This document shows, piece by piece, positions 5,239-52,780 of a DNA stretch of 64,000 nucleotides; the stretch's first letter is position 1, and each line of letters starts with the position of its first letter. The notes beneath the pieces were generated by a model that did no database searches, was not told where the DNA came from, and saw only the letters and a list, made by a program, of their open reading frames with translations. This stretch comes from an uncultured Actinomycetes bacterium (GTDB lineage: Bacteria; Actinomycetota; Thermoleophilia; Solirubrobacterales; 70-9). A program made the translations under genes and the position numbers. Location of the stretch: the NCBI GenBank assembly GCA_963782515.1, contig CAWAJY010000006.1, forward strand, positions 349,988 through 413,987. Reading direction: 5' to 3'.

Positions 5239-5759
5239 GGGACGGCGGTTGTTCCGGCGGTGGCGGCCGTCCGAGGTGCGTCCTGGGCGTCTCATGGGCG
5301 GTCCTGGCAGGCTGTGACCGCCATGAGACGCCCAGGACTTGAGGGGTTCGTGAAGCAGCCGGCACACCTCGGCCGGATCGGTGACGAAGATGCCGGGAAG
5401 GTCACACCCGCGTGAGCCTCCGGTCTGTCTCCGGGCCCGGGACAAGGGCCCGAGGCCTCGATGCAAGCATTGACGTCGTCATGGCGACACCAAAGCTTGC
5501 ATCGCGGTCGTGACCGTTGGACAACACGCACGGAAGCGTGGAGTTCCCACGGTCTCCGTGACGAGGTACGTCTTCCGTGACGGATCCGTGTCCCTCCCGT
5601 GACGAACCCGGGGCACCGTCGCGAGAGATCCGCCACTCCCCGCACTCCCGGCCGTCTCGGCCACGGCCACAGCCGGCCAGGGCCGTGGCCGAGACGGCCA
5701 CGCTCGCCGCCGGCCCTTGCGTCCCTTGCCCGGGCGCCGGCTTCAGACGGCCCCGTCCC
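5239..5759 (-). repeat. mosaic hairpin repeat, locus B (type II, reverse orientation)
   Basis: M5 5239-5275. M4 5280-5338. Conserved small hairpin 5381-5405. Variable hairpin VH1 5460-5503. Conserved core 5504-5610. M2 5650-5699. M1 5700-5759. Lies between the zwf stop and the efeU start. Confidence 0.85.
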
Positions 5760-5839
5760 TCCCCGGAACCATCCTCCCGCCCCAACTCCTAGCGGCCTGC
5801 TAGGTTTTCGGGCGCCCTTATTAGGGGGGCCGAATACCC

Positions 5840-6697
5840 ATGATCCCCACCTTCGTCATCACGCTGCGCGAGGGCGTCGAGGCCTCGCTGATCGTCGGCA
5901 TCATCGCCGCCTTCCTGGTCAAGGAGGGGCGCCGGGACGCGCTGCGGCAGATGTGGATCGGGGTCGGCATCGCGGTCGTCCTCTGCACGGCGGTCGGCGT
6001 CGGCCTGGACGTGGTCGGCGAAGAACTGCCGCAGAAGGAGCAGGAGGGGCTGGAGACGATCGTCGGCCTGATCGCGGTGGCGATGATCAGCTACATGATC
6101 ATCTGGATGACCCGCCACTCGCGGGAGATCAAGGCCGAACTCGAGGGCGAGGCGGCGAGCGCGCTGGCCCACGGCTCGGCGATGGCGCTGGTCGGCATGG
6201 CCTTCCTCGCGGTCCTGCGCGAGGGCTTCGAGACCTCCGTCTTCCTGCTCGCCGCCTTCCAGGACGCGACCGACACGACCGCCGCCGGCGCCGGCGCGGT
6301 CCTCGGCCTGCTCGCCGCGGTGCTGATCGGCGTCGGCCTCTACCGCGGCGGCGTCCACATCAACCTCTCGAAGTTCTTCAAGATCACCGGGCTCGTCCTC
6401 GTCTTCGTCGCCGCCGGCCTGCTGGCGACCGCCGCCCACACCGCCCACGAGGCGGGCTGGATCAACAGCTTCCAGTCCGAGGCGGTGAGCCTGCGCTGGC
6501 TGGTCCACCCGGGGACCGTCTCCGAATCGCTCTTGACCGGGATGCTCGGCCTGCGCGCCGTGCCGACCCAGGTCGAGGCGTTCGTCTACCTGGCCTACGC
6601 GATCCCGATGGCCACCTACGTCCTCTGGCCGCGCGGCCGCCGCGCCCCCAGCCGCAGCGCGGAGGCGGGCGGCACCGCCGCCCAGAACCCGGCCTAG
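5840..6697 (+). CDS. efeU: FTR1/EfeU-family iron permease
   Basis: 285 aa polytopic membrane protein with two REGxE motifs (REGVEASL, REGFETSV). Confidence 0.8.
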   Translation: MIPTFVITLREGVEASLIVGIIAAFLVKEGRRDALRQMWIGVGIAVVLCTAVGVGLDVVGEELPQKEQEGLETIVGLIAVAMISYMIIWMTRHSREIKAELEGEAASALAHGSAMALVGMAFLAVLREGFETSVFLLAAFQDATDTTAAGAGAVLGLLAAVLIGVGLYRGGVHINLSKFFKITGLVLVFVAAGLLATAAHTAHEAGWINSFQSEAVSLRWLVHPGTVSESLLTGMLGLRAVPTQVEAFVYLAYAIPMATYVLWPRGRRAPSRSAEAGGTAAQNPA

Positions 6698-6699
6698 CG

Positions 6700-7932
6700 A
6701 TGCCGCTCTCACGTCGTCGCCTGCTCGCCTCGGCGGGGCTCGGCGCCGCCGGCGTCGGCCTCGGCGCGGGCGGCTACCTCGTCGGCCACGAGGCCGCCAC
6801 GGCCGACGCCGCCGAAAGCGCCGGCACCGTCCCCTTCTACGGCGAGCACCAGGCGGGCATCGCGACGCCGGTCCAGGACCGTCTCCACTTCGCTGCCTTC
6901 GACCTCGAAACGGAAAGCAAGGCGGAGCTGCGCGAACTGATGGAAGAGTGGTCGCAGGCGGCGCGGGAAATGACCGAAGGCCGGATGATCGGCGCCGAGA
7001 ACGACAACGTCTACGCGCCCCCCGACGACACCGGCGAGGCGAAGGGCCTCACCGCCTCCAACCTGACCGTCACCTTCGGCTTCGGCCCTGGCATCTTCGA
7101 CCGCCCCGGCCTCGGGCTCGCCGCCCGGCGCCCGGCCGAGCTTAAACCGCTCCCGGCCCTCCCCGGCGATGAGCTGAACGGTCTCGAATCCGGCGGCGAC
7201 ATCTGCGTGCAGGCGTGCGCCGACGACCCCCAGGTGGTCTTCCACGCGATCCGCAACCTCGCCCGGATCGGCCGCGGCACGGTGACCATGCGCTGGTCCC
7301 AGCTCGGCTTCGGGCGCACCTCGAGCACCAGCCGCGGCCAGGAAACCCCGCGCAACCTCTTCGGGATGAAAGACGGCACGGCCAACATCAAGGCCGAGGA
7401 CACCGACGCGATGTCGAAGTTCGTCTGGGTCGACGACGGGCCGGCGTGGATGCGGGGCGGCAGCTACCTGGTCACCCGTCGGATCCGGATGAACCTCGAG
7501 GTCTGGGACCGGTCCTCGCTCGGCGACCAGGAGGAATCGATCGGCCGGCAGAAGTACAACGGGGCGCCGCTCGGCGGCAGCGAAGAGTTCGAACCGCTGC
7601 CGCTCGACGACAAAGATTCGAACGGCGAACCGGTGATCCCGGCGAACTCCCACGTGCGGCTCGCCTCGGCACAGGAAAACGACGGCCTGCAGATCCTCCG
7701 GCGCGGCTACTCGTTCACCGACGGCGTCGACCAGAGCCTCGGCCAGCTCGAAGCCGGCCTCTTCTTCATCGCCTTCCAGCGGGACCCGGACAAGCAGTTC
7801 GTCGCGCTGCAGCGCAAGCTCGGCGTCAACGACGCGCTCAACGAGTACATCAAGCACGTCGGCAGCGCCGTCTTCGCCGTCCCCGGCGGAGTCGCGAAGG
7901 GCGGCTACGTCGGCGAAGCGCTGTTCGCCTGA
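6700..7932 (+). CDS. efeB: Dyp-type peroxidase / deferrochelatase EfeB (Tat-exported)
   Basis: Start taken at MPLSRRRLLASAGLGAAG (twin-arginine signal), in frame within the long ORF 5599..7932. The Dyp family C-terminal region is recognisable (GLFFIAFQRDP). Confidence 0.85.
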   Translation: MPLSRRRLLASAGLGAAGVGLGAGGYLVGHEAATADAAESAGTVPFYGEHQAGIATPVQDRLHFAAFDLETESKAELRELMEEWSQAAREMTEGRMIGAENDNVYAPPDDTGEAKGLTASNLTVTFGFGPGIFDRPGLGLAARRPAELKPLPALPGDELNGLESGGDICVQACADDPQVVFHAIRNLARIGRGTVTMRWSQLGFGRTSSTSRGQETPRNLFGMKDGTANIKAEDTDAMSKFVWVDDGPAWMRGGSYLVTRRIRMNLEVWDRSSLGDQEESIGRQKYNGAPLGGSEEFEPLPLDDKDSNGEPVIPANSHVRLASAQENDGLQILRRGYSFTDGVDQSLGQLEAGLFFIAFQRDPDKQFVALQRKLGVNDALNEYIKHVGSAVFAVPGGVAKGGYVGEALFA

Positions 7933-8080
7933 AATTATTCCGACCGGATCCGTCGGTTTTTGTTAGGGTCCCCTAAGTAGGACCCACCTGTGCCCGGGAT
8001 CCGCGCCGAACGAGACGACGTCGCGGTCCTGGGCACGCCTTACCTCGAACCATCCACCTCTCACCAAGGAGTCTGTCCAG

Positions 8081-9229
8081 ATGAACCGTGTCCCTCTGCG
8101 TGCCCTGATCGCGGCGGTCGGCTTAGCCCTCGTCGCGCTGTTCGTGGCGGCCTGCGGCTCCAGCGGCGACAGCACCGCCTCCTCGGCCGACTCCACCCAG
8201 CTCACCTTCAAACTGACCGACGACGGCTGCGATCCGATCAAGGCGAGCGCCCCCGCCGGCCCGATCGACTTCACGGTCGAAAACGGCGGCACGAGCAAGT
8301 ACACCGAGCTCGAGATCCTCGACGGGGAAACGATCCTCGGCGAGCGCGAGAACATCATCGACGGCACCACCGGCAGCTTCTCGCTGACCCTCGAAGAAGG
8401 CGAATACGCGGTGCGCTGCCAAGAAGGAGGCGGCGACGGCGAAGCCACGCTGAAGGTGACCGGCCAGGTGGAAACCAAGAAGAGCCCGGAAATCGACAAG
8501 GCGATCGCCGACTACCGCGCCTACCTCGAGGAAAACACCGCCGAGCTGACGGCGAAGACGAAGCCGTTCGTCGCCGCGGTGATCGCCGGGAACATCGCGA
8601 AGGCGAAACAGCTCTACCCGGAACCGCGCATCCCGTACGAGCGGATCGAGCCGGTGGCCGAGTCCTTCGGCGACCTCGACCCGCGCATCGACGCGCGTGA
8701 AAACGACGTCGAGCCGAGTGAATTCGGCGGCTTCCACCGGATCGAGAAAGCGCTCTGGGAAGAAGAAAGCCTGAAGGGGATGAAGCCGGTCGCCGAAGAG
8801 CTGATGGCGAACGTCGAAGAACTGGAAGCGAAAGTCAAGGGCGTGAAACTGCAGGCGGTCCAGATCGCCAACGGCGCCAACGAGCTCCTCACCGAGGTCT
8901 CGACCTCGAAGATCACCGGCGAGGAGGAGCGCTACTCGCACATCGACCTGGTCGACTTCAAGGCCAACGTCGAAGGATCGGAAGACGCCTTCCAGGCGGT
9001 CGCCCCGCTGATGGAGAAGCAGGACCCGAAGCTGGCCAAGGAAATCGAAGCCGACTTCGCCAACGTCTACGCGACGCTGAAGCCCTACGAAACCGACAAG
9101 TGGCCCGGGTTCGTCTTCTACGAAGAACTCAACGAAGAAGACACCCGCAAATTGGCGCAGGGCATCAACGCGCTGGCCGAGAAACTGTCGCTCGTTCCGG
9201 CCCAGATCGCCAAGGGGGAACAGGCCTAG
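8081..9229 (+). CDS. efeO: EfeO-like iron-uptake lipoprotein (cupredoxin-like N-domain + M75/imelysin-like domain)
   Basis: AAGGAG RBS. Lipobox LFVAAC. GGFHRIEKALW (HxxE) motif typical of EfeO/EfeM. Confidence 0.75.
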   Translation: MNRVPLRALIAAVGLALVALFVAACGSSGDSTASSADSTQLTFKLTDDGCDPIKASAPAGPIDFTVENGGTSKYTELEILDGETILGERENIIDGTTGSFSLTLEEGEYAVRCQEGGGDGEATLKVTGQVETKKSPEIDKAIADYRAYLEENTAELTAKTKPFVAAVIAGNIAKAKQLYPEPRIPYERIEPVAESFGDLDPRIDARENDVEPSEFGGFHRIEKALWEEESLKGMKPVAEELMANVEELEAKVKGVKLQAVQIANGANELLTEVSTSKITGEEERYSHIDLVDFKANVEGSEDAFQAVAPLMEKQDPKLAKEIEADFANVYATLKPYETDKWPGFVFYEELNEEDTRKLAQGINALAEKLSLVPAQIAKGEQA

Positions 9230-9268
9230 CGTCAACCCGCCGGGGGAGTCCCTAGCCTGGGACGGTCC

Positions 9269-10888
9269 ATGGATGAGACCGCACAGATGAGCTTGGGTTC
9301 CTCCCCCGGCGGGGCCACGCCCGCCTCTCCCGGCGAGCGCGCCGACGCGTTGCTCGCGGAGCTCGGGTACGCCGAGTGGCGGGCGGGGCAGCGCGAGGCG
9401 GTGATCGCCGCCCTCGAGGGTCGCGATTCCCTGATCGTGATGCCGACCGGCGGCGGCAAGAGCCTCTGCTACCAGCTGCCGGGGCTGGCCTCCGACGATC
9501 TGACGATCGTCGTCAGCCCGCTGATCGCGCTGATGCGGGACCAGTGGCTGCGGCTGACCCAGGCCGGGCACCCGGTGGCGATGGTCTCCTCGGCGATGGA
9601 CGAGGGGGACACCTGGGACGCCCTGGAGAGCGTCCGCAACGGACGGGCGAAGATCGTCTACTGCGCACCGGAGCGCTTCGCCTCGCGGGTCTTCCTCGAC
9701 GCGATCGGGCAGCGCAAGGTCGACCTGCTGGCGGTCGACGAGGCCCACTGCGTCTCCGAGTGGGGGCACGACTTCCGCCCCGACTACCTGCGCCTGCCGC
9801 AGATCGCCGAGCGGCTCGGCCGGCCGACGGTGATGGCCTGCACGGCGACGGCGACGGTGCCGGTCGCGGTGGAGATCGCGCAGCGCTTCGAGATGCGGGA
9901 GCCACTGCGGGTGCGGGCGGGCTTCGACCGTCCCAACATCTCCTTCGACGTGATCGCGCTGGAGGGCAAGGGCTCCAAGGCGCGCCGCCAGGCGCTGCTG
10001 GAGACCGGGCTCGCCGACCCCGCCAACCGCCCCGCGATCGTCTACTGCGGCACCCGCAAGGACACCGACGAGGTCGCCGGAGAGCTGCGCTCGACCGGCC
10101 TGCGGGCGCTGGCCTACCACGCCGGGATGGAAGGCAACGAGCGCTCGATCGTCCAGCGGCGCTTCATGTCCGGCGGCGAGGACGCGGTCGACGTGGTCGT
10201 CGCCACCAACGCCTTCGGCATGGGAGTCGACAAGGCCGACGTGCGGTCGGTCTGGCACATGGCGATCCCGACCTCGGTCGAGGCCTACTACCAGGAGGCC
10301 GGGCGCGCCGGGCGCGACGGCCTGCCCTCGCGAGCCGTGATGCTGGCGATGAAGGCCGATCTCGGGCGGCTCGTGCGCTTCAACGAACAGCGGGCGAACG
10401 ACCCGGAGCTGGCGATCGCCCACGAGCGCGGCTGGCGTGCCTACCACGCGATCAAAGACTTCATCTACGGCACCCGCTGCCGCCGCGTCGCGCTGCTCGC
10501 CCACTTCGGCGACCGCCGCGCCGAGACCCCTCCCCTCGGCCGCTGCTGCGACATCTGCGACATGCTCGACTGGCTGCCCGACCCGGACACGATCGCCGTC
10601 CGCAAGCCGGCCCGCGCCGCCGGCACCTCCACCCCGGCCCCCGACCTCTCCCCCGGCGACGAACCCCTCTTCGAGGCCCTGAAGAAGTGGCGCCTCCAGG
10701 TTGCCGAAGGCAAGCCCGCCTACACGGTGGCGAACAACAAGACCTTGGCCTCGATCGCCGCCCGCCGCCCCACCGGCCGCCCGGCGCTGATCGAGATCTC
10801 CGGCGTCGGCCCCGCCTTCGTCAGCAAGTACGCCGAGGACGTGCTGGCCCTGGTCGCCGAGCACGACGAGTCGCAGCTGGCGGCTTAG
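9269..10888 (+). CDS. recQ: ATP-dependent DNA helicase RecQ
   Basis: PTGGGKSLCYQLP Walker A. DEAHCVSEWGHDFRPDY. A Cys-rich Zn module (CRRVALLAHFGD...CCDICD). C-terminal HRDC-like segment. Confidence 0.85.
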   Translation: MDETAQMSLGSSPGGATPASPGERADALLAELGYAEWRAGQREAVIAALEGRDSLIVMPTGGGKSLCYQLPGLASDDLTIVVSPLIALMRDQWLRLTQAGHPVAMVSSAMDEGDTWDALESVRNGRAKIVYCAPERFASRVFLDAIGQRKVDLLAVDEAHCVSEWGHDFRPDYLRLPQIAERLGRPTVMACTATATVPVAVEIAQRFEMREPLRVRAGFDRPNISFDVIALEGKGSKARRQALLETGLADPANRPAIVYCGTRKDTDEVAGELRSTGLRALAYHAGMEGNERSIVQRRFMSGGEDAVDVVVATNAFGMGVDKADVRSVWHMAIPTSVEAYYQEAGRAGRDGLPSRAVMLAMKADLGRLVRFNEQRANDPELAIAHERGWRAYHAIKDFIYGTRCRRVALLAHFGDRRAETPPLGRCCDICDMLDWLPDPDTIAVRKPARAAGTSTPAPDLSPGDEPLFEALKKWRLQVAEGKPAYTVANNKTLASIAARRPTGRPALIEISGVGPAFVSKYAEDVLALVAEHDESQLAA

Positions 10889-10915
10889 GGGAAGCTCGAC
10901 CCGGCTGTTGTGCCG

Positions 10916-11115
10916 GTCCCCGTTTGACGAGGGTAACGGGGACTCCACACTGCCGGATTCAGCGCTGCAGTCCTTACTGTCGCCATAGCGCCTACAAAGC
11001 TTGCAGCGCTGTCGTGAGTGTTGGACAACACGCACGGGAGCGTGGACTTCCTACGCTCTCTGTGACGATCCCTCGTCACTCCCCGCGGGCGCCGGCTTCA
11101 AGCGCCCCCTTCCGT
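10916..11115 (-). repeat. mosaic hairpin repeat, locus C (truncated type II; lacks M2 and M4)
   Basis: 9-bp hairpin 10916-10943. VH1 10960-11011. Conserved core 11012-11080 (gtgttggacaacacgcacgggagcgtggacttcc...). M1 remnant 11081-11115. Lies between the recQ stop and the MBL-hydrolase start. Confidence 0.75.
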
Positions 11116-11167
11116 TTGCCGGCCACCCCCACCCCGCCCCGCCGGGAGCAACTGAGAGGATTCGCGG

Positions 11168-14658: not shown

Positions 14659-14825
14659 CGGGATGCCGGGGCCGGCCGAGGAGACGCGCCTTGCCGGGCA
14701 GCGCCCCATGCTGCCAAGCGCGACCCGCCGGGCGAGGCTCACCGGGGCACCCTGCAACGCTCGTTGCGCCCCGCTGAGGTGCGGACCCGAGGCAAGCCGC
14801 CGGGGGGAGCCCTAGGAGGTGGAAA

Positions 14826-15375
14826 GGGACGGGGAAGGGACGCTGGCCGTCTCGTCCACGGCCCTGGCTGGCTGTGGCCGTGGCCGAGACGGCCGGGGAT
14901 GTGAGGAGTGGCGGGGATCGCCCACGCGAGCGCCACGGGTTCGTCACGGCAGGGACACGGATCCGTCACGGGACTCGCATCTCGTGACGGAGAGCGTGGG
15001 AAGTCCACGCTTCCGCGCGTGTTGTCCAACGCTCACGACCGCGCTGCAGTACTTGAAGGCGCTATAGCGCCAGTAAGGACTGCAGCGCTGGATCCGGCCC
15101 TCTTTCCAGGCCCGGAAAGCGCCCGAAGGTGCCCGAAGGCCGCGGGAAGTGTGTAGTTCCCGGCATCTTCGTCAACGATCGGGGTGAGGTGTGGCATCTC
15201 TCGCGCGCACCCTTGACGTAAGCCCGACCTCGGCCCGTCCCTGCGCCAGAACCCACACGAACCCCTCACGTCCTGGGCGTCTCATCGCGGTCACAGCCAG
15301 CCAGGACCGCGATGAGACGCCCAGGACGCACATAGGACTGCCGCGACGGCAGGGAGAGCGGGACAACGCCCGTCC
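14826..15375 (+). repeat. mosaic hairpin repeat, locus D (type II, forward)
   Basis: Short M1 14826-14844. M2 14845-14894 (19-bp arms, loop CTGGCTGGCTGT). Core 14930-15040. VH1 15041-15088. M4 15269-15328 (perfect 24-bp stem, loop ACAGCCAGCCAG). M5-like end 15335-15375. Confidence 0.85.
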
Positions 15376-15381
15376 GCGACC

Positions 15382-16077
15382 TCAGCTCCCGTCCGGCGGC
15401 TCCCAGAACTGCATCGCGCCGGCGACGGCGAAGCAGACGGCGCCGCCGAAGGTTCCCCAGTTGGCGATGCCGACGGCGATCATGTCGCCGTCGGCGCGGA
15501 CGAAGGAGGCGACGCCGGAGACCATGAAGAGGACCGAGCCGACCTGGTTGACGAAGACGATCCACCAGCCGAGGCCCTCGCCGCGCAGGCGCCACCAGGA
15601 GCCGGAGATGTCGACCATCGCGAGGAAGCCGGAGATGAGGAAGAGGAGGCAGCCGATGATGTCCGGGTTCCAGACCAGGCGGTCCTCCTGGGTCGGCGTG
15701 AGGTTGCCGAGCAGGGAATCGATGAGGTTGATGCCGAAGACGATGGTCCCGGCGAAGAGGACGGCGGCGGCGAGGTAGTCGATGTTGCCCGGTTCACGCG
15801 CCCACCAACGCCAGCGGTCCCCCGCCCAGGAGCCGTCCCGGCGGCGATGCGGGGCGTTGATCGCCAGCAGCACCGAGGCGTAACCGCCGGTGGAGAAGAA
15901 GACGCCGCCGACGAGGTAGACGACCGCGGCGAGGCGCGGCCCACCGATGTCGGCCTGGGCCAGGAGGGCGCCGATCGCGAAGAGCGAGCCGCCGAGGAGG
16001 AACGCCCCGGCCGCGACCGCGTTCGCTCTACGGAGCGGTGAAGGTGGCCGGGTCGGGGCCGATGCGATGGCCGGCAT
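15382..16077 (-). CDS. polytopic membrane protein of unknown function (YrhK-like)
   Basis: 231 aa with about 6 hydrophobic helices. The only canonical start (ATG 16077) overlaps the AKR gene 3' end by 50 nt. Confidence 0.5.
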   Translation of the reverse strand: MPAIASAPTRPPSPLRRANAVAAGAFLLGGSLFAIGALLAQADIGGPRLAAVVYLVGGVFFSTGGYASVLLAINAPHRRRDGSWAGDRWRWWAREPGNIDYLAAAVLFAGTIVFGINLIDSLLGNLTPTQEDRLVWNPDIIGCLLFLISGFLAMVDISGSWWRLRGEGLGWWIVFVNQVGSVLFMVSGVASFVRADGDMIAVGIANWGTFGGAVCFAVAGAMQFWEPPDGS

Positions 16078-16858: not shown

Positions 16859-16862
16859 CGAG

Positions 16863-18722: not shown

Positions 18723-18735
18723 TAGGTTGGGCCGG

Positions 18736-24507: not shown

Positions 24508-25124
24508 GGGACGTAGGGTCGACCGCGGTGGAGGTTCGGGCCTCGCAAGCCGGCGCCCCGGGACAAAGGACGCAAGGGCCTGCGGCGAGCGCGGCCGTCT
24601 CGGCCACGGCCCTGGCCGGCTGTGGCCGCGGCCGAGACGGCCGGGTCTTGTGGGGAGTGACGAGGATCGTCGGGTGCGGGTCACGCGGGCGCATAAGAGG
24701 GACGCGGGTCCCGCGAGGCGCACGGGAGGCACACGGATCCGTGACGGAAGCCGTACCTCGTCACGGAGACCGTGGGAACTCCACGCTTCCGTGCGTCTCG
24801 TCCGACGGTCACGGAGGCGCGGGCGACCCTGGTTACGCATAGGTTCACTCAGGTCGCCCGCACTCCCGGGGACCTCGATCCCGGTGCCGGGAGGTGACCC
24901 GGAGCGCACGGGGGTGTGACGTTCCCGGCATCTTCGTCACGGATCGGGGCGAGGTCGGGGTAGGTGTGGGCTCTCCCCGGCTTCTCTCGCGCGGGAGGGT
25001 GACGGATGTTTCACGAACCCCTCACGTCCTGGGCGTCTCATGGCGGTCACAGCCTGCCAGGACCGCCATGAGACGCCCAGGACCGATCTCGGACGGCCGG
25101 GGCGGCCGGAAGCACGGCCGTCCC
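24508..25124 (+). repeat. mosaic hairpin repeat, locus E (type II, forward, longest copy)
   Basis: M1 24508-24592 (with an insertion). M2 24593-24642. Core with cacggatccgtg palindrome 24730-24815. VH1 24819-24861. Small conserved hairpin 24916-24940. M4 25026-25083 (23-bp perfect stem). M5 25090-25124. Lies between convergent gene ends. Confidence 0.85.
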
Positions 25125-25148
25125 GCGCCTCCACCCCCACCTCACCCC

Positions 25149-25957: not shown

Positions 25958-26006
25958 GTTGATGGGCCGAAAACCGGACATATAGACGGGTTTTCGGCCC
26001 ATCAAC
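25958..26006 (-). terminator. perfect 18-bp hairpin with AT-rich loop between the CoA-transferase stop and the SDR start
   Basis: gttgatgggccgaaaacc (25958-25975) pairs with ggttttcggcccatcaac (25989-26006). Loop ggacatatagacg. Overlaps the stop codon at 26002-26004. Confidence 0.5.
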
Positions 26007-27609: not shown

Positions 27610-27629
27610 CTCTCCCCCAACGCCCGACC

Positions 27630-27670
27630 CCCCGCGCGCCGGTTCCCGGATCGGGAGCCGGCGCGCGGGG
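27630..27670 (+). terminator. GC-rich hairpin after the SnoaL-like gene
   Basis: ccccgcgcgccgg (27630-27642) pairs with ccggcgcgcgggg (27658-27670), with inner cccg/cggg pairing. No U tract. Confidence 0.45.
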
Positions 27671-27681
27671 GTGCGCGGGGA

Positions 27682-28099
27682 GGGACGGGCCGGAGGAAGC
27701 CGGCGCCCGAGGTGAGGGACGCAAGGGCTGGCGGCGAGCGCGGCCGTCTCGGCCACGGCCCTGGCCGGCTGTGGCCGCGGCCGAGACGGCCGGGTATGAA
27801 AGCGGCGGAGGAACCGTGACGTCGATGAGGGAGACGCCACGAAGTCCACACTTCCTCCCGGGTTCTTCCACTGTCCGACGCCGCCGCCGGCAACCCTTAG
27901 ACCTTGGTAGCCCTGTGGGCTACCAAGGTCTAAGGGTTGGGTTCCGGCCCATCGAGGCAATCACGGGAGTCCGGACTTCGTGCCGTCCCTGTGCCCGTTG
28001 TTTCACGAACCCCTCACGTCCTGGGCGTCTCATGGCGGTCCTGGCAAGCTGTGACAGCCATGAGACGCCCAGGACCGATCTCGGACGGCCGGAGCGGCC
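27682..28099 (+). repeat. mosaic hairpin repeat, locus G (type I: M1-M2-core fragment-M3-M4-truncated M5)
   Basis: M1 27682-27741. M2 27742-27791. M3 27894-27936 (loop ctgtg). M4 28018-28075 with an inverted loop (ctggcaagctgt). The M5 stub 28082-28099 runs into the stop codon of the RibBA-like gene. Confidence 0.85.
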
Positions 28100-29187
28100 T
28101 AGATCGCGGTGTCGACGCAGCGGGAGCCCGAGCGCCTGCGGGGAGCGGTGCGGGGGCGGGCCACCTCGACGCCGCGCTCGCGCAGTGGGGCTGCCTGGGC
28201 GGGGTCGAGGGGGAGGACCGAGGCCGGTGCGAGCTCGTCGAGGGTGGCGGCGGCCAGGTCGAAGGTGCGGGGGTCCTCCGGGTCGACATCGCGAAGGTGG
28301 ATGAGGATCCCGGCCTCGGCGCGGGCGAAGCGTCGCAGGAGGGCGACCAGGCTGCTCTCGCCGGTCGGGGCGAGGGTGGTGATGAGGTCGTCGATCGGCG
28401 AGGAGGCGCGGATCGCCAGGGGCACCTCCCGGCGACCCTCGACCTCGCCGCGGACCAGCGCCGCGTGCGCCTCGCCGGTCACCTCGTTGGTCAGGCTGAC
28501 CGCGGTGAAGGCCCCGTGCTGGGTGACGACCCTCCGGCGCTCGGTCGCCCGGACCGGCCGCTCGGCCGCGATCCGGCGGGCGGCGACCTCGGTGACCGTG
28601 ACCAGGGGCAGGTGGCGCTCGGCGGCGGTGGCGCGGACCTCGGCCGCGCTCGCGGTCCGACCGGCCTCATCGAGCATCGCGCAGATCGCCGCCGCCCCGG
28701 TGCCACCGGCGAGCCGGACCAGATCGACGGCCGCCTCGGGCGCCCCGCGCGCGGCGAAGACGCCCGCGTCGGCGGCGATCAGCGGCGGCACGTGGCCGGG
28801 GACCACGAGGTCGGAGGACCGCGTCGCCGGGTCGGCGACGACCCGCGCGGTGTTCGCCCGCTCGGCCGCCGAGATCCCGGTCGTCGTCCCCACCCGCGCG
28901 TCCACCGACGCCGCGATCCGCCGCGCCCGACCGCCGGCCGCCGGCCGCCGGCTCCCGATCGGGGAACCAGCGTGCGCGGTGCCGGTGCGGGGCTGCTGCT
29001 CGGGGAGGTTCAGCTCACCGGCGCGGCCGGCGGCGAGGACGACGGAGAAGATCCCGCCGCCCGCGTCGAGCATCGCGACGACGTCCTCGGTGCTCGTGCC
29101 GCGGGCGTCGCGGAGGAGGTGGCCGACGCCCTCGTCGTCAAGCAGGACCACGATCTCACCGCGGGCGATGGCCTCGATCGCCGTCAC
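28099..29187 (-). CDS. RibBA-like protein (DHBP synthase / GTP cyclohydrolase II fold) with degenerate catalytic motifs
   Basis: 362 aa, GTG start in a GTGA overlap with the crotonase stop. Retains VPGHVPPL and EAAVDLVRLAG. The acidic DEDRENEGD loop is replaced by LDDEGVGHLL. The GCH-II Cys cluster is absent. Confidence 0.55.
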   Translation of the reverse strand: MTAIEAIARGEIVVLLDDEGVGHLLRDARGTSTEDVVAMLDAGGGIFSVVLAAGRAGELNLPEQQPRTGTAHAGSPIGSRRPAAGGRARRIAASVDARVGTTTGISAAERANTARVVADPATRSSDLVVPGHVPPLIAADAGVFAARGAPEAAVDLVRLAGGTGAAAICAMLDEAGRTASAAEVRATAAERHLPLVTVTEVAARRIAAERPVRATERRRVVTQHGAFTAVSLTNEVTGEAHAALVRGEVEGRREVPLAIRASSPIDDLITTLAPTGESSLVALLRRFARAEAGILIHLRDVDPEDPRTFDLAAATLDELAPASVLPLDPAQAAPLRERGVEVARPRTAPRRRSGSRCVDTAI

Positions 29188-44464: not shown

Positions 44465-44475
44465 GGGTCCGGGTC

Positions 44476-44760
44476 GTCTGAGGCTGGCGCCCGGAGGCGC
44501 AAGGGACGCAAGGGCTGGCGGCGAGCGCCGCCGGCAACCCTTAGACCTTGGTAGCCCACAGGGCTACCAAGGTCTAAGGGTTGGGTTCCGGTCCATCGAG
44601 GCAATCACGGAAGTCCGGAGTTCGTACCGTCCCTGTGCCGGATGCTTCACGAACCCCTCACGTCCTGGGCGTCTCATGGCGGTCACAGCCAGCCAGGACC
44701 GCCATGAGACGCCCAGGACCGATCTCGGACGGGTGCCGCGGCCGCGAAGCATGCCGTCCC
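44476..44760 (+). repeat. mosaic hairpin repeat, locus H (type I lacking M2)
   Basis: M1 44476-44527. M3 44538-44580 (loop cacag, flipped relative to locus G). M4 44662-44719 (23-bp perfect stem). M5 44726-44760. Confidence 0.85.
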
Positions 44761-47047: not shown

Positions 47048-47076
47048 GAAACGTCATCAGACGGAAGGAGAGGTCG

Positions 47077-47880
47077 ATGGGAAAGCTCGCTGTCGAGGAC
47101 AACAAGGAGATCTACTTCGAGGACTACGCCGGGGAGGGCCGGCCGGTCGTGCTGGTGCACGGCTGGGGGATGAGCTGCCGGGTCTGGGACTACAACCTGG
47201 CCGCCTTGCGGGCGGCGGGGCACCGGGTCGTCTCGCTCGACCACCGCGGCTGCGGTCACTCCGACAAGGACTTCGACGACGTCTCGATCGGCGCGATCGC
47301 GTCCGACGTGGTGGCGCTGGTCGACGACCGCGGGCTGGAGTCCCCGGTCATCGTCGGCTGGTCGCTGGGTGCGGCGGTCGCGGTGGAGGCGGCCGAGGCG
47401 CTCGGCGATCGCGCCGCCGGGTTGGCCCTGATCGGCACGCCCTCGCCGCGCTACCTGCAGGCGGCGGACTGGGAGATCGGCGGCACGCCGGAGGCGATGA
47501 AGGAAACGGCGGCGGCCCTGACCGGCAACCGCGCGGGCTTCCTCCACGACCTCACCGTCGGCGTCTTCAAAGACGACCCGGGCCCTGCCGTGATCGAGTG
47601 GATGTGGTCGATCTTCATGGAAACGAGCCCGAACGCCGACCTCACGCTGATCGCGTTGGGGGAGCTCGACCACCGCGAGATGATGCCGACGCTGGAGCTG
47701 CCGGCGCTGCTCTGCGTCGGCGCCGCCGACGTGGTCGTCGACCCCCGCACCTCGGCCAAGGCCGGGGAGCTCCTGCCGAACAGTCGCGTCGTCGACTTCG
47801 CCGAGAGCGGCCACGCCCCGTTCATCGAGGAGCAGGAGAAGTTCGAGGGCGAGCTGCTCGACTTCCTCCGCGGGATCTGA
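47077..47880 (+). CDS. alpha/beta hydrolase
   Basis: 267 aa. HGWG oxyanion motif, GWSLG nucleophile elbow and a C-terminal GH. Confidence 0.8.
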   Translation: MGKLAVEDNKEIYFEDYAGEGRPVVLVHGWGMSCRVWDYNLAALRAAGHRVVSLDHRGCGHSDKDFDDVSIGAIASDVVALVDDRGLESPVIVGWSLGAAVAVEAAEALGDRAAGLALIGTPSPRYLQAADWEIGGTPEAMKETAAALTGNRAGFLHDLTVGVFKDDPGPAVIEWMWSIFMETSPNADLTLIALGELDHREMMPTLELPALLCVGAADVVVDPRTSAKAGELLPNSRVVDFAESGHAPFIEEQEKFEGELLDFLRGI

Positions 47881-47890
47881 GGAGGCGACG

Positions 47891-48574
47891 ATGGTCAAAG
47901 TGCTGGCGCTGATCCCGCGGCGCCCCGACATCTCGAACGAGGAGTTCCACTCGCACTGGGAGTCCCCGCACGGTGAGATGGCCTGCGGCATCGACACCCT
48001 GCAGGCCTACGTCCAGTGCCACCGGCTGCGGCCCGGCCTCAGCGGCCTGCCCGAGGCCGAGTACGAGGGAATCGCCGAGGTCTGGTTCGTCGACGTGGCG
48101 ACGGCGGCGGCGATGGGCGAACACCCGGTCTACGCAGAGCAGGTCCAGCCCGACGAGCCGAACTTCATCGACACCGACCGGCTCGCCTTCGTCTTCGCCG
48201 ACGAGCACGTGGTGCGGAACGGAGCGGAGCTGGAGAAGGACACGCCGACGGTCAAGGCCCAGCTCCTCCTGCGCCGCGCCGCCGGCACCTCGCGGGAGGA
48301 CTTCGAGGCCGCCTGGGCGGCGACCGACGAGGGCTTCGTCGCCGCCTTCCCGAAGGCGATCCGCCTCGTCCGCACCGTGGCGAGGCCGGAGAGCTACGCC
48401 GAAGGCGAGCCCGCCGCCGACGGCTTCGCCGAGCTCTGGTGGCCCGACCGCGAGTCCTTCGAGGAGGACTGGGCCGCCGACGGCGAGCCCTTCCTGCGCT
48501 CACTGGAACCCTTCGCCGACCTCGACGCCTCGAGCGCCTTCCTCTCGGAGGAGCTCCGCCTGCTCTGGCCCTAG
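47891..48574 (+). CDS. tandem EthD-domain protein
   Basis: 227 aa. Two EthD-like halves (KVLALIPRRPDISNEEFHSHWESPHG and KAQLLLRRAAGTSREDFEAAW). Confidence 0.65.
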   Translation: MVKVLALIPRRPDISNEEFHSHWESPHGEMACGIDTLQAYVQCHRLRPGLSGLPEAEYEGIAEVWFVDVATAAAMGEHPVYAEQVQPDEPNFIDTDRLAFVFADEHVVRNGAELEKDTPTVKAQLLLRRAAGTSREDFEAAWAATDEGFVAAFPKAIRLVRTVARPESYAEGEPAADGFAELWWPDRESFEEDWAADGEPFLRSLEPFADLDASSAFLSEELRLLWP

Positions 48575-48586
48575 ATGAGGGTCGGA

Positions 48587-48640
48587 GACGCGTACCGGAG
48601 TTTGACCCTGTCATAGCAAGGTCAAACTCCGGTGCGCGTC
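48587..48640. terminator. 21-bp hairpin between convergent genes (bidirectional terminator candidate)
   Basis: gacgcgtaccggagtttgacc (48587-48607) pairs with ggtcaaactccggtgcgcgtc (48620-48640) with one T/G position. AT-rich 12-nt loop. Confidence 0.5.
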
Positions 48641-48668
48641 CGTGACCGTTCGGGCGCCGGCCCCGTCC

Positions 48669-49709
48669 CTAGGCCAAACCGCCCTCCAGCGCGTCGGCGG
48701 CCTGCTCGGCCAGGCTCGGGACGCCGGCCTCGAGGCGGGCGAAGAAGGGGTCGTCGGTGGTGCCGGCCTGGAAGCGGCGGTAGCTGCCCTCGAGCAGGAT
48801 GGCGAGCTTCCAGAGGGCCAGGGACTGGTACCAGGGGAGGCGGTCGACGTCGAGTCCGGAGGCGGTGGCGTAGCGGTCCACCAGTTGGGACCGGGTCGGA
48901 TAGCCGGCCTCGGTCGGCGCTCGCGAGAGGCCGAGGAGGCGTTCGGGGTCGTCGCCCTGCAGCCAGGTGGCGGTGAGGAAGCCGAGGTCGGCGAGCGGAT
49001 CGCCGATCGTCGCCATCTCCCAGTCGAGGATGGCGACGAGGCGGGCCGGCGAGGTCGGGGCGAAGGCCACGTTGTCGAGCTTGTAGTCACCGTGGACGAC
49101 GGTGGCCGGAGGCGAGGTCGGCAGGGAGCGGCGCAGCGCCTCGCCGGTCCGTTCGATCACCTCCACCTCGCGGGTCTTCTGCTGCTTCCACTGCTTCGAC
49201 CAGAGGTCGACCTGGCGCTCCAGGTAGCCGTTCGCGCGCCCGATCTGGGACAGCGCCTCCGAGCGCCGCCAGTCCACCCGGTGCAGCTCGAGCAGCGTGT
49301 CGACCAGCTCCTCGCCGATCCGCCCGCGGTCGGTCGGGTTGTCGAGCGGCGGGGGCGTCGCCGGGTCGGCGACGATGCCGTCGACCCGCTCCATCACGTA
49401 GAAGGGCGCCCCGATCACCCCCGGGTCGTCACAGGCGAGCACCACCTTCGGCACCCGCACGTCGAACTCCTCGAGCCCGGCGAGGATCCGGTACTCCCGC
49501 AGGACGTCGTGCGCCGAGGGCTGGATCGGCCCGCGCGGCGGCCGCCGGAGGACGAGCCGCCGGCCGCCGGCGTCGAGGAAGAAGGTGACGTTGGAGTGCC
49601 CGGCGGAGGCGCGTTCGAACGCCAGCTCGCCCAGGCCGAGGAGCCGCTCCAGCGCCTCGCGGACGATCAGCGGCTCCTCCGCGGCCTCGGTCTGGACGGG
49701 ACGAGACAC
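48669..49709 (-). CDS. APH-like phosphotransferase, paralog of 30802..31866
   Basis: 346 aa. GHSNVT, RRPPRGPIQPSAHDVLRE, HGDYKLDN and LDWEMATIGDPLADL motifs. Confidence 0.75.
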   Translation of the reverse strand: MSRPVQTEAAEEPLIVREALERLLGLGELAFERASAGHSNVTFFLDAGGRRLVLRRPPRGPIQPSAHDVLREYRILAGLEEFDVRVPKVVLACDDPGVIGAPFYVMERVDGIVADPATPPPLDNPTDRGRIGEELVDTLLELHRVDWRRSEALSQIGRANGYLERQVDLWSKQWKQQKTREVEVIERTGEALRRSLPTSPPATVVHGDYKLDNVAFAPTSPARLVAILDWEMATIGDPLADLGFLTATWLQGDDPERLLGLSRAPTEAGYPTRSQLVDRYATASGLDVDRLPWYQSLALWKLAILLEGSYRRFQAGTTDDPFFARLEAGVPSLAEQAADALEGGLA

Positions 49710-49716
49710 AGCGACG

Positions 49717-50481
49717 TCAGTAGTTCAGCCCGTTGACCGACCAACCGCCGTCGACCGGGAAGAGCAGTCCGGTCTGGAACGCCCCGTCGACCGGGTCGAA
49801 CAGGTAGGCCATCATCCCGGCGATCTCCGAAGCCTTGCCGAGCCGCTTGATCATGTGCGAGTTGGCGTTCTGCTCGCGCATCTCGTCGGTGATGTCCTTG
49901 AGGATCGGCGTGTCGATCGTCCCCGGCGCGATCGCGTTGACGAGGACGTTGTCCTTCGCGTATTCGAGCGCCGCCTGCTGGGTCAGCGCGATCACGCCGC
50001 CCTTGGCCGCCGAGTAGGAGGCCAGGTTGGTCAGCCCCTTGAGCGCCGCCAGCGAGGAGATGTTGACGATGCGGCCGCCGCCGTTGCCCTGGAAGACCGG
50101 GATCGCGGCCTGCATGCCGAGCCAGACCCCGCGCAGGTCGGTGTCGAGGACGTAGTCCCAGCCCTCGTCGGTGAGGCCGACGACCGAGTCCTCGGATTTG
50201 AGGTTGACGACACCGGCGACGTTGCCGAGCAGCTCGACCGGGCCGAAGGCCTCGGCGCACGCCTCGATCGTCCGCTGCCAGTCCTCGCGCTCGCGGGTGT
50301 CCATCTGGACCTGGAGCGCGTCGCCGCCGTCGGCGACGATCTGGTCGTAGGTCGTCGAATCGTCCTGGATATCGGCGCAGACGACCTTCGCGCCCTCCTT
50401 GGCCATCCGCACCGCGCACGCCTGTCCGATCCCCTGCGCGGCGCCGCTGATGATCGCCACTTTCCCGTCGAGTCGACCCAC
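49717..50481 (-). CDS. SDR family oxidoreductase
   Basis: AGGAGG RBS and GTG 50481. GKVAIISGAAQGIG and YSAAK motifs. Confidence 0.8.
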   Translation of the reverse strand: MGRLDGKVAIISGAAQGIGQACAVRMAKEGAKVVCADIQDDSTTYDQIVADGGDALQVQMDTREREDWQRTIEACAEAFGPVELLGNVAGVVNLKSEDSVVGLTDEGWDYVLDTDLRGVWLGMQAAIPVFQGNGGGRIVNISSLAALKGLTNLASYSAAKGGVIALTQQAALEYAKDNVLVNAIAPGTIDTPILKDITDEMREQNANSHMIKRLGKASEIAGMMAYLFDPVDGAFQTGLLFPVDGGWSVNGLNY

Positions 50482-50641
50482 GATTCCTCCTAGTCCATTG
50501 CCCTGTAGTGAGCGCGGGGTTTCCGCGCATCCCTTTTCTAGGCGAGCAACGGAGGCCGGGGGCGGACCTGGGGAAGCAGTCTTGTGGGTTCCCACAGGGG
50601 CCCCCCGCGCCGTTCGGCGGATAGCCGATAGCGTCGCGCCG

Positions 50642-51370
50642 ATGAGGAGATGGCTGGTCACCGGAGCCGGCAGCGGCATCGGCCGCGCCGTGGCGGAGCT
50701 CGCCGGCGCGGCGGGCGACGCCGTCGCGCTGGTCGGGCGGCGGGAGCTCGGCGAGGTCGCCGCGGCGGTCGAGAAGGCGGGCGGCGCGGCGGTCCCGATC
50801 CAGGCCGATCTGGCGGCCTCCGACGGCCCCGAAGCCGTCGCCGCGGCCGCGGCGGAGGGCCTCGACGGCCCGGTCGACGTCCTGGTCAACAGCGCCGCCC
50901 TGCACGTCGGCGGGCGCCTCGCGAGCCTCTCCGACGAGGACTACCGCGCGGTGCTGGAGATCGGACTGGTCGCTCCGTTCCGCTTGATCCGCACGGTCGC
51001 CGCCGAGATGGAGCGCGGCGGCGCGGTGGTCAACATCGGCGCCGTCGTCGGCCTGCGCGGCTTCCCCGGCGACTCGCCCTACGGCTCGGCCAAGGGAGGG
51101 CTCGCCGGCCTCACCAAGGTCCTCGGCGTCGAGCTGGCCCGCGACGGGATCACCGTCAACCTCGTCGTCCCCGGCTTCACCGACACCGAGATGACGGAGG
51201 GCGTCGACGACGTCGCCAAGGAGCGGATCGTCCGCGGCATCCCTCTGCGGCGCACCGCCGCGCCGGTCGAGATCGCCCGCGTCGTCCACTGGGTGGCCGA
51301 GACCCCTTACATGACCGGCGCCGTGATCCCGGTCGACGGCGGCCTGATGGCCGGGTTCGGAACGCACTGA
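50642..51370 (+). CDS. SDR family oxidoreductase (FabG-like)
   Basis: MRRWLVTGAGSGIGRAV and YGSAK motifs. Confidence 0.8.
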   Translation: MRRWLVTGAGSGIGRAVAELAGAAGDAVALVGRRELGEVAAAVEKAGGAAVPIQADLAASDGPEAVAAAAAEGLDGPVDVLVNSAALHVGGRLASLSDEDYRAVLEIGLVAPFRLIRTVAAEMERGGAVVNIGAVVGLRGFPGDSPYGSAKGGLAGLTKVLGVELARDGITVNLVVPGFTDTEMTEGVDDVAKERIVRGIPLRRTAAPVEIARVVHWVAETPYMTGAVIPVDGGLMAGFGTH

Positions 51371-51406
51371 CGATGGAGGCTTGTGGATGTCGACAGGAGG
51401 GCACGG

Positions 51407-52168
51407 ATGGTGAGTGAGGGCGCGGGCGCGATCGTCTTCGGCGGCGCGTCGGGACTGGGCGAGGCGACCGCGAGGCGACTGGCGGCCGACGGCGCCCGGG
51501 TCGTGATCGCCGACCTCGCGGGTGAGCGGGCGGGGGCGCTGGCCGCGGAGCTCGGCGGCGCGGGCGCCGCGGTCGACGTCCTCGACGAGGAGGGCGTGGC
51601 AGCCGCGGTCGAGGACGCCGCGAGCGCCCCGCGGGGCCTGCGGATCTGCGTCAACTGCGCCGGGATCGGGCCACCCGGGAAGCTGGTCGGCCGTGACGGG
51701 CCGAGCCCGCTGGCGAGCTTTCGCAAGATCATCGAGGTGAACCTGATCGGGACGATCAACACCCTGCGGCTGGCCGCGGCGGCGATGCTCGGCAACGATC
51801 CCGACGAGGAGGGCGAGCGCGGCGTCTGCGTCAACACCGCCTCGGTCGCCGCCTTCGACGGCCAGATCGGCCAGGTCGCCTACGCCGCCTCCAAGGCCGG
51901 AATCGCCGGCATGACGCTGCCGCTGGCGCGCGAGCTGGCCGGCCGCGGCGTGCGCGTCGCGACGATCGCCCCGGGCCTCTTCGACACCCCCCTCCTCGCC
52001 TCGCTCCCCGAGGACGTCAAGGCCTCCCTCGGCGCCGCGGTCCCCTTCCCACCGCGCCTCGGCCGACCGAGCGAGTACGCCGACCTAGTCGCCGCGATCG
52101 TCGCCAACCCGATGCTGAACGGCGAGACGATCCGCCTCGACGGGTCGATTCGCATGGCACCGCGCTGA
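51407..52168 (+). CDS. SDR, 3-hydroxyacyl-CoA dehydrogenase type II-like
   Basis: [40 protein letters not shown] and the C-terminal NGETIRLDG typical of HSD10-like enzymes. Confidence 0.75.
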
Positions 52169-52186
52169 GATGATCGATTCCACGGG

Positions 52187-52780
52187 GGGACGGGCGGGCG
52201 TGCTTCGGGGCGTCGCGTCCGTCCGAGTTGCGTCCTGGGCGTCTCATGGCGGTCCTGGCTGGCTGTGACCGCCATGAGACGCCCAGGACGTGAGGGGCTC
52301 GTGAAACATCCCGGCACACCTCGCCCCGATCTGTGACGAAGATTCCGGGAACGTCACACCCGCGTGAGCCTTCGGTCCGTCTCCGGGCCCTCGAGAGAGG
52401 GCCCGGAGACGCGCTGCATGCGTTGACCGTGCCATGGCACGGTCAACGCATGCAGCGCGGTCGTGACCGTTGGACGACACGCACCGAAGCGTGGAGTTCC
52501 CACGGTCTTCGTGACGAGGTCGGGGATCGGTGACGGATCCGTGACCCTCCCGTGACGAACCCGAGGCGCTCGCCCGGGCGATCCCGCCACTCCCCACATC
52601 CCCGGCCGTCTCGGCCACGGCCACAGCCAGCCAGGGCCGTGGCCGAGACGGCCGCGCTCGCCGCAAGCCCTTGCGTCCCTTGCCTCGGGCGCCAGCTTGA
52701 AACCGCCCCGAGCCCTTGGAATCAACCTTCTGACGGGCGTGCCCCCGGCCGCAGCGGCCGTCCGAGTTGCGTCCTGGGCG
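52187..52780 (-). repeat. mosaic hairpin repeat, locus F (type II reverse, plus a truncated second copy)
   Basis: M5 52187-52227. M4 52231-52290 (perfect 24-bp stem). Small hairpin 52334-52357. VH2 52379-52410 (perfect 14 bp). VH1 52411-52458 (48-nt perfect palindrome). M2 52604-52653. M1 52654-52716. Extra M5 plus a 10-nt M4 stub 52732-52780. Confidence 0.85.

Follow-up and report, generated by a model that had tools for sequence, protein, structure and literature searches.

REPINs are doublets of REPs (repetitive extragenic palindromic units) forming hairpins and are mobilised by RAYT transposases (Bertels & Rainey 2011, PMC3116915); they combine conserved inverted ends with a spacer hairpin in which compensatory changes are frequent (PMC3116915). 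We analyzed a 64,000-nt stretch of DNA (the window; positions 349,988 to 413,987 of contig CAWAJY010000006.1, assembly GCA_963782515.1) from an uncultured Solirubrobacterales bacterium, in which an initial annotation, made from the letters alone, had noticed long (type II) repeat copies with internal hairpins. These copies represent an undescribed, very abundant modular intergenic repeat family of Solirubrobacterales (class Thermoleophilia). At their center lies a hairpin, VH1, in which pairing is preserved while the sequence is replaced, and the findings favor DNA palindromes, carried by a repeat resembling a mobile element, over a folded RNA gene.

The window (70.5% G+C) holds ten full or partial copies, located with an nhmmer profile built from four copies, a palindrome scan and searches for single modules; together they cover about 3.8 kb, or about 6% of its length. 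Four are long (B, D, E and F) and three are short (A, S1 and S2), the latter with a central palindrome that differs from that of the long type. The others are an internally deleted copy (C), a mini copy and a truncated left end. The element is a non-coding, modular, two-fold symmetric unit of about 500-620 bp, which a repeat search splits into many overlapping direct and inverted families. It starts with GGGACGG and a weak stem, followed by the hairpin HL, with a 23-bp stem and a 12-nt loop (GTCCTGGGCGTCTCATGGCGGTC-CTGGCWGGCTGT-GACC...), by GTGAGGGGTTCGTG and by a small conserved hairpin, GTGACG-AAGATGCCGGGAA-CGTCAC. VH2 and then VH1 come next, and 3' of VH1 lie a conserved core (...AGCGTGGASTTCCCACG...) and several GTSAC motifs. 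HR is an inverted homologue of HL, its loop ACAGCCWGCCAG being the reverse complement of the HL loop, and the tail consists of at least one unit CGTCCCTT...GGGCGCCRGCTT and terminates in CCGTCCC. The inverted termini are short (GGGACGG ... CCGTCCC) and of the type found in miniature inverted-repeat transposable elements (MITEs), with GGGACGG(G)CG ... CG(C)CCCGTCCC at the ends and HL and HR as subterminal inverted homologues. On a gene map of the window drawn from third-position G+C, all ten copies are intergenic, and no open reading frame (ORF) with coding-type third-position G+C lies inside them.

In a scan for the core motif with one genome per species, the matches listed fell in Solirubrobacterales and other Actinomycetota metagenome-assembled genomes (MAGs), and none of them in Streptomyces. 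Among the core-motif matches listed, at least about 35 loci lie on a single 3.8-Mb MAG chromosome (OZ241364.1), and these align to copy F over its full length with 68-76% identity. Two features tie the window to the same order: a Solirubrobacterales MAG locus (L055) has the gene order of window positions 58514-64000 at 85-88% nucleotide identity, and the thiolase beside F is matched at 100% identity by a protein encoded on a 678-kb contig and at 74-86% by proteins labelled 'Solirubrobacterales bacterium'. A Streptomyces origin or a known actinobacterial repeat was ruled out, the family being found in Solirubrobacterales MAGs, and no description of it turned up in the literature searched. A phage or plasmid origin was likewise rejected, with no match in viral contigs, plasmids or phages; the core pattern had a single viral-contig match (L069).

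The initial annotation had proposed that five copies carry, at the same position relative to the core, five different self-complementary stems. All five stems were found to within one base of the positions it gave, and in F the stem with its flanking C/G forms a perfect 50-nt palindrome. All are self-complementary as described, but C and D carry the same allele, which leaves four independent alleles. The stem of E belongs to a separate allele class (b) that lacks the TTGACC box and is common to L012 and L056; a VH1 covariance model gave no match to it. The general design of VH1 is GCG-N9-TTGACC-N4-YATR-N4-GGTCAA-N9-CGC. In 42 oriented copies, taken from the window and MAGs of Solirubrobacterales and other Actinomycetota, VH1 lies at a constant distance upstream of the core as a near-perfect palindrome of 46-52 nt with many different sequences.

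We counted covariation in two alignments, A2 (35 copies from several genomes) and A3 (26 non-redundant alleles). In A2, scored with a structure written from copy F, changes on both sides that kept the pair were present at 19 of the 23 VH1 pairs, and 86% of VH1 cells were paired, as against 34-52% when the partner columns were slid by 1-3 positions. VH1 also topped all 500 shuffles on every one of five measures, and RNAalifold recovered its stem from A2 unprompted. Similar values were obtained for A3 (both-side changes at 17 of 23 pairs; 88% of cells paired). On a neighbour-joining tree built from the flanks alone, parsimony counted at least 82 switches between Watson-Crick pairs in VH1. The covariation test suggested in the initial annotation was therefore passed, and its central observation, that pairing is preserved while the stem sequence is replaced beside segments that keep theirs, was borne out.

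Different stems at one position could also arise if each long copy had received its own unrelated palindromic element there, a possibility that the initial annotation had itself raised against its reading. Palindromes of the VH1 type do occur alone (in the mini copy, at L047 655-704 and L072 2286-2333, both located with the VH1 covariance model, and in 43 high-G+C metagenome contigs); two VH1-type units stand in tandem in L018 and L060, and the inner part of VH1 is lost in L043. Against such nested insertions, however, embedded alleles have the same length, frame (GCGCTG ... CAGCGC), core and flank junctions, indicating that they are variants of one module. They also follow the subfamilies defined by the flanks, and a covariance model of VH1 alone matched in the window solely element copies, the mini copy included. 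As an account of the differences between copies, nested insertion is thus largely refuted, and we regard it as very improbable. A nested palindromic element may nevertheless account for the origin of VH1.

The other hairpins keep their sequence to different degrees. VH2 of copy F is the perfect 14-bp stem that had been described; across A2 it covaries less strongly than VH1 (6 of 10 outer pairs). The small hairpin with a 13-nt loop, reported from E, F and B, is present in all three, but in F it starts at 52333 rather than 52334. Its closing pair in B is a G·G mismatch, and it also occurs in D, with TTGACG. In A2 it barely varies, and its loop is nearly invariant. HL keeps both sequence and pairing (97.9% of cells paired across 31 copies; 10 pairs are invariant and 5 covary) despite a median whole-copy identity of about 72% and a closest pair at 92%. 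HR behaves likewise and shows compensated variants too, such as GGCCCTCTCGGCGGCGGCC...GGCCGCCGCCGAGAGGGC. Of 35 copies, 30 have complementary bases in the middle of the HL and HR loops, and three states occur (T/A in 17, A/T in 11 and C/G in 1, with one loop pair changed at several positions).

Reverse-strand nhmmer matches, together with a comparison of the conserved-hairpin region with the core region, revealed that each half of the element is a diverged inverted copy of the other. In F, the center of VH1 (52434.5) lies within 10 nt of the midpoint between HL and HR (52444). Selection on a fold-back of the whole element was considered and rejected: RNAalifold gave only local hairpins on full-length copies, and pairs between the conserved hairpin and the core showed no covariation. 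Two loops are inverted among the short copies in the window. The 12-nt loop of HL in S1 is flipped relative to every other copy, and the S palindromes of S1 and S2, otherwise identical, have the loops TGT and ACA, respectively.

The family resembles REPINs in being non-coding, extragenic and of high copy number, with an evolving population within one genome, and in having inverted conserved units that flank a spacer in which compensatory changes preserve both the length and the capacity for hairpin formation. Its REP-like features are the ten intergenic copies in 64 kb, the HL/HR inverted doublet and the compensated apex palindrome. Unlike described REPINs of about 70-110 nt, the element is about 550 nt long, contains several nested hairpins and conserved unpaired segments, ends in 55-nt hairpins with conserved 12-nt loops, and resides in Thermoleophilia rather than in a proteobacterium. 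Its hairpins lack GTAG/CTAC at their feet, those of HL, HR and VH1 being GTCCTGGG, GGCCGTCT and GCGCTG, and no RAYT gene was seen in the 8-14 kb loci around matches, a search that was not genome-wide. Bacterial interspersed mosaic elements (BIMEs) and BOX elements offer a second comparison: they too are modular, with palindromic units in alternating orientation, conserved linkers and a location at gene 3' ends, and the present family likewise exists in long, short, mini and tail-only versions with variable numbers of tail units. There is no sequence relationship to the enterobacterial and pneumococcal elements, however; the units here are much longer, and they are arranged around one two-fold symmetry center with a hypervariable apex palindrome.

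With MITEs the element shares its size class, lack of coding capacity, terminal inverted repeats, intergenic location and presence or absence between close relatives. By contrast, neither a target-site duplication nor a parent insertion sequence with the same ends was found in the fetched loci, and the internal hairpins are conserved across copies, unlike those of a decaying MITE. Palindrome-associated transposable elements (PATEs) derived from IS200/IS605 do not match: since the HL and HR loops are reverse complements, the ends are inverted, whereas the subterminal hairpins of PATEs share one orientation on a single strand and inverted termini are lacking. At integron attC sites and hairpin origins of rolling-circle replication, an enzyme recognises a folded single DNA strand. 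The imperfect palindromes, short conserved boxes and otherwise compensated stems of the present family recall these sites. The R and L boxes of attC (RYYYAAC ... GTTRRRY), its extrahelical bases and its strand asymmetry are all missing, however; the boxes of VH1 (TTGACC/GGTCAA) lie in the inner stem rather than at the foot, and the stems are near-perfect and symmetric. Nor is there an integrase, a Rep gene or a cassette context, the neighbours being housekeeping genes. The GTAG head is missing, and in the fetched loci neither a target-site duplication nor a RAYT gene or parental insertion sequence was seen; membership in the REPIN, BIME/BOX or MITE family is thus not established, and REPINs appear to be the closest in behavior.

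We then asked of the same data whether they speak for RNA or for DNA. No Rfam family matched at its gathering score anywhere in the window; at a relaxed E-value only generic hairpin-shaped models of microRNA precursors were returned. A known RNA family, an ORF-less group II intron and an omega-RNA-type element were accordingly dropped as candidates without Rfam support. Among mismatches in VH1, G·T and A·C accounted for 10 and 9 distinct states, and over all helices for 18 and 25; an independent metagenome sample gave 21 vs 21 and 11 vs 7. G·T was no commoner than A·C even in tandem-gene contexts, where the element was co-oriented with the genes in four cases and anti-oriented in four. Thus the generic signature of a strand-specific RNA, an excess of G·U and a consistent gene orientation, did not appear. 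Copy F folds equally well on both strands (z about -15), the VH1 covariance model scores both strands alike (76.5 bits on each for F), and the palindromes usually run through their own center (CTATAG, CCATGG). This strand-symmetric evidence, together with the two kinds of inverted loop in S1 and S2, fits a symmetry at the DNA level. Neither a sigma-70-type promoter nor a T-tract terminator was predicted in F, and no terminator-like site was predicted in 52100-52900. Terminators without a U tract have been reported in actinobacteria. Of the initial proposal that a folded form, RNA or single-stranded DNA, is selected, the preserved pairing stands; nothing points to RNA, and the data do not establish selection on each copy.

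A function in RNA would place the hairpins in read-through transcripts, as terminators lacking a U tract, barriers to 3'-5' exonucleases or RNase III sites. Between convergent genes both strands would be transcribed and both would have to fold, so that any G·U asymmetry would be erased. REP, ERIC and Correia elements act in transcripts of flanking genes. The location of the copies agrees with such a role: they begin 0-50 nt from stop codons, 19 of the 30 with both neighbours called sit between convergent genes, and stand-alone VH1-type palindromes lie at or overlap stops and can fill a whole convergent spacer. The RNA fold is also very stable (z = -14.8), and pairing is conserved across genomes. 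Yet no hairpin is followed by a T/U tract, and a terminator would require far less than some 550 nt with conserved ends and conserved unpaired sequence. Self-complementarity of the palindromes extends through the loop, the balance of G·T and A·C holds in tandem-gene contexts as well, orthologous sites show loss or replacement of copies instead of conservation, and Rfam has no matching family. We therefore consider an RNA-level function unlikely, albeit worth keeping in view.

Comparison of orthologous sites revealed rapid turnover. The spacer between the thiolase gene and a convergent adh_short gene (52169-52838) measures 670 nt in the window and contains F and what remains of a second element. 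One relative, its thiolase 96% identical, has a spacer of 368 nt there, which contains a short-type element in the opposite orientation with a different apex palindrome; in a second relative, also with a 96% identical thiolase, it is 165 nt long, and it shrinks to 58-60 nt in relatives whose thiolases are 92% and 87% identical (the loci compared include L070, L071 and L072). In L072 a 46-nt VH1-type palindrome makes up the whole spacer at this 'empty' site. These differences among close relatives indicate that elements are gained, lost and replaced quickly at one site, and the thiolase/adh_short spacer is a turnover hot spot. Similarly, a degenerate element at L055 2525-2814 is absent from the orthologous site in the window, a 33-nt spacer at 62087-62119. 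The sole occupant of that site in the window is a small hairpin, GGCGATCT...AGATCGCC (62085-62124), which overlaps both stop codons of the convergent pair.

The fate of single copies was followed in a 14-copy subfamily of OZ241364.1. Variants confined to a single copy had similar densities in VH1 and the core (0.146 and 0.155 per column), and of those in the VH1 stem four break a pair, one improves one and two are neutral; three inherited VH1 mismatches persist in most members. Because such variants are as frequent in VH1 as in the core and mostly break pairs, individual copies look as if they decay neutrally after insertion. Arm-to-arm correction is not rapid, and it is on lineages still spreading that the constraint on pairing seems to act. 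Some copies are truncated or have internal deletions. The copies compared among the fetched loci are paralogues only, and no orthologous copies were found there.

These data bear on a purely mutational origin, in which template switching within a strand during replication, or hairpin-templated repair, symmetrises near-palindromes without selection. A change in one arm would then be reverted or copied to the other, and the result would look like covariation. This process would explain why perfect palindromes of 46-52 nt include their own center, why both strands show the same pattern and why the outer arms of stand-alone palindromes are locus-specific, as if copied from the local flank; moreover, strand switching in inverted repeats is known to leave loop inversions such as those of the S palindromes and of the S1 HL. 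By contrast, the 14-copy subfamily keeps its three inherited mismatches and leaves single-copy mutations uncorrected, chimeric and half-palindromic alleles persist in several metagenomes, and the 24-nt center of VH1 and its conserved GCGCTG frame imply a sequence constraint that this process leaves unexplained. A mutational origin alone is accordingly rather improbable.

From the architecture, the covariation, the strand symmetry, the intergenic location at gene 3' ends and the gain, loss and replacement between relatives, we infer mobilisation in trans, with a DNA hairpin as the selected object. The element would be propagated by a putative enzyme that recognises the conserved HL and HR ends. 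Its central palindromes would fold as DNA hairpins, in single-stranded DNA or as a cruciform, for copying or moving. If folding is needed for propagation, the spreading lineages would keep VH1 paired, while the stem outside its 24-nt core would be free to drift; after insertion, single copies would decay, recombine and be deleted. An element like REPINs, BIMEs or MITEs, whose DNA hairpins matter for propagation, is the explanation we favor, at evenly balanced confidence. Selection on the folded DNA strand and arm-to-arm copying both fit the data.

Several observations weigh against this explanation. No transposase or recombinase partner and no copy of the form HL-ORF-HR was present in about 1.3 Mb of loci (8-14 kb each), and no autonomous insertion sequence with the same ends was found in the fetched loci, viral contigs, plasmids or phages. 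We recovered neither a target-site duplication nor a clean empty site: the elements have ragged ends with no recognised direct repeat, the flanks are no more complementary than the control (mean 7.6 nt vs 7.2 nt), and divergence at the 'empty' orthologous sites is too great for alignment. The closest copies are only 92% identical, which documents no recent movement. Long-range complementarity between the halves is not maintained either, an informative R/Y position being A·C in 15 of 39 copies. The full VH1 stem is not indispensable, as a widespread subfamily lacks its right outer arm, and a two-way RNA role between convergent genes would impose strand-symmetric constraints too. Insertion into pre-existing hairpins, suggested by complementary flanks of F, E, B and L026, was also considered and discarded, since the complementarity was not above a control with mismatched flanks.

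An independent sample came from metagenomes scanned with the VH1 core alone, TTGACCNNNNYATRNNNNGGTCAA, which yielded 120 loci before duplicates were removed. In 20 of the copies, VH1 is embedded, that is, beside HL, HR, the conserved hairpin or the core, with flanks that the pattern leaves unconstrained. The ten flanking bases were complementary at nine or more positions in ten of these copies, at six to eight in five and at three or fewer in five. Another 43 copies, in high-G+C contigs, had no element module within 400 nt, and 30 of them were complementary at seven or more of the ten positions. By contrast, 49 low-G+C matches, which served as a chance control, mostly showed complementarity at one to four positions. 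C-rich left and G-rich right inner arms were seen in the embedded and the stand-alone high-G+C copies and not in the control. Chance or selection bias as the source of the stand-alone copies was excluded by this shared inner-arm composition and the paired outer arms, both absent from low-G+C matches. With a relaxed pattern, 31 of 32 stand-alone copies were intergenic, at or overlapping gene ends; their outer arms are locus-specific. VH1 is thus one member of a broader palindrome class that has the 24-nt core in common and also stands alone at gene 3' ends.

The five unpaired embedded copies fall in one subfamily, in which GGTCAA is followed by ACC-NN-GGTCACG in place of the right arm. Such a metagenomic subfamily of the long element (L097, L134, L136, L170, L177 and L179) retains the VH1 core and the left outer arm, with the two alleles CGTGAG and TCGACT, and lacks a complementary right arm, reading GGTCAA and then ACC-NN-GGTCACG(T/A)G. 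Two other apparent variants were set aside: L146 and L192, which look like reciprocal recombinants within the core of VH1, are the same sequence taken from opposite strands, and the 'Z arm' loci belong to one subfamily that appears in either orientation. No strict stand-alone palindrome with a YATR center was present in 509 kb of Solirubrobacterales sequence (the window and the core-motif loci, unselected by the VH1 core); centers of other sequence there indicate that the stand-alone class is rare in this lineage.

We tentatively suggest, as a single combined proposal that we hold to be doubtful, that VH1 is one instance of a widespread undescribed class of DNA palindromes in high-G+C soil Actinomycetota. 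Its 24-nt core, TTGACC-(C-rich N4)-YATR-(G-rich N4)-GGTCAA, would be the putative site of an enzyme (a recombinase, transposase or nuclease, for example) whose substrates are hairpins or cruciforms. The arms of 8-12 bp, different at almost every locus and still complementary, would either provide enzyme specificity or be made by hairpin-templated synthesis at new sites. The 550-nt repeat would then be a composite vehicle around one such core site, with the loops of HL and HR paired or bound together.

Three further sets of palindromes were noted. L081 97-148 and L124 51-102, from different metagenomes, are a stand-alone VH1-type pair with compensated outer arms (GAATGGACAC/GTGTCCATTC vs GAGTGGACAG/CTGTCCACTC), and could be taken for a single site, or a single family, present in two organisms. 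A 49-nt palindrome with an ATATAG center, GTTGATGGGCCGAAAACCGGACATATAGACGGGTTTTCGGCCCATCAAC (window 25958-26006), recurs nearly unchanged as GGGCCGAAAACCGGACATATAGGCGGGTTTTCGGCCC at L031 ~1640-1700, where it adjoins an element of an Actinomycetota MAG unrelated to the window, and has the look of a second palindromic repeat family. A third family, GCTGTTC(C/T)TTATGG...CCATAA(G/A)GAACAGC, is found at element ends (L018 ~2740-2800 and L041 ~90-150), and a compensated change distinguishes its versions in the two MAGs.

Soils are rich in Thermoleophilia, a little-studied class, and the repeat family has practical consequences. The elements are expected to break short-read assemblies and to yield false ORF and small-RNA predictions in these MAGs, and they flag places where the sequence between neighbouring genes turns over rapidly. 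With dozens of alleles and hundreds of copies, nature supplies a large data set, and within one element hairpins of conserved sequence (HL and HR) stand beside one that keeps only its structure (VH1). The family is therefore a good system for asking what maintains bacterial palindromes, be it selection acting on folded DNA or on RNA, or symmetrisation from a template. If the 24-nt core is indeed an enzyme site, it would represent a new system of DNA-hairpin recognition.

The coordinates of the copies in the window are collected in the table below.

Repeat copies in the 64-kb window and the positions of their modules. The last column gives the VH1 stems of the initial annotation.
Copy	Position	Strand	Type	Modules	VH1 stem
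A	1593-1990	-	short	HL 1888-1945; S palindrome 1750-1800; HR 1656-1707; tail	
B	5219-5761	+	long	HL ~5279-5339; conserved hairpin 5381-5405; VH1 5457-5506; core 5534-5551; HR 5647-5702	5460-5503
C	10900-11100	+	internally deleted	VH1 10961-11010; core 11038-11055; tail	10960-11011
D	14777-15397	-	long	HL 15269-15328 (24/24 pairs); VH1 15040-15089; core 14995-15012; HR 14843-14896	15041-15088
E	24531-25146	-	long	HL 25026-25083; conserved hairpin 24916-24940; VH1 24819-24861; core 24771-24788; HR 24590-24645	24819-24861
S1	27681-28108	-	short	HL 28018-28075; S palindrome 27891-27939 (loop TGT); HR 27739-27794	
S2	44466-44759	-	short, without HR	HL 44662-44719; S palindrome 44535-44583 (loop ACA); tail	
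G	48575-48668	+	mini	GGAGAC; VH1-type palindrome 48587-48640; GTCCGTGACCGTT; tail ending CCCGTCCC	
F	52172-52716	+	long	HL 52232-52287; conserved hairpin 52333-52357; VH2 52379-52410; VH1 52410-52459; core 52487-52504; HR 52601-52656; tail	52411-52458
Remnant of second element	52731-52780	+	truncated left end	left end and first 10 nt of HL stem	

Copy A sits between convergent genes, and mini copy G, whose palindrome scored 60 bits with the VH1 covariance model, is the entire spacer between two such genes. Copy C has kept a piece resembling the left stem and a degenerate conserved hairpin, whereas HL, VH2 and HR are gone.

The smaller motifs also vary among copies. Right tails are composed of one to four tandem 10-11-nt units, CGTCCCTT(N3-4), and one or two GGGCGCCAGCTT units (for example, L060 6284-6340, L056 7012-7060 and window 14790-14845), and GGGACG, which is complementary to the tail motif, is repeated at the left end in L051. 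The near-palindromic pentamer GTSAC (GTGAC/GTCAC) occurs at least five times per element (for example, at 5550-5610 and 52505-52560 of the window), with a central base that flips among copies, and may be a protein-binding motif. Just beyond the right end of S1 lies a 43-nt G+C-rich palindrome, CCCCCGCGCGCCGGTTCCCGGATCGGGAGCCGGCGCGCGGGGG (27629-27671), which is unrelated to the element modules.

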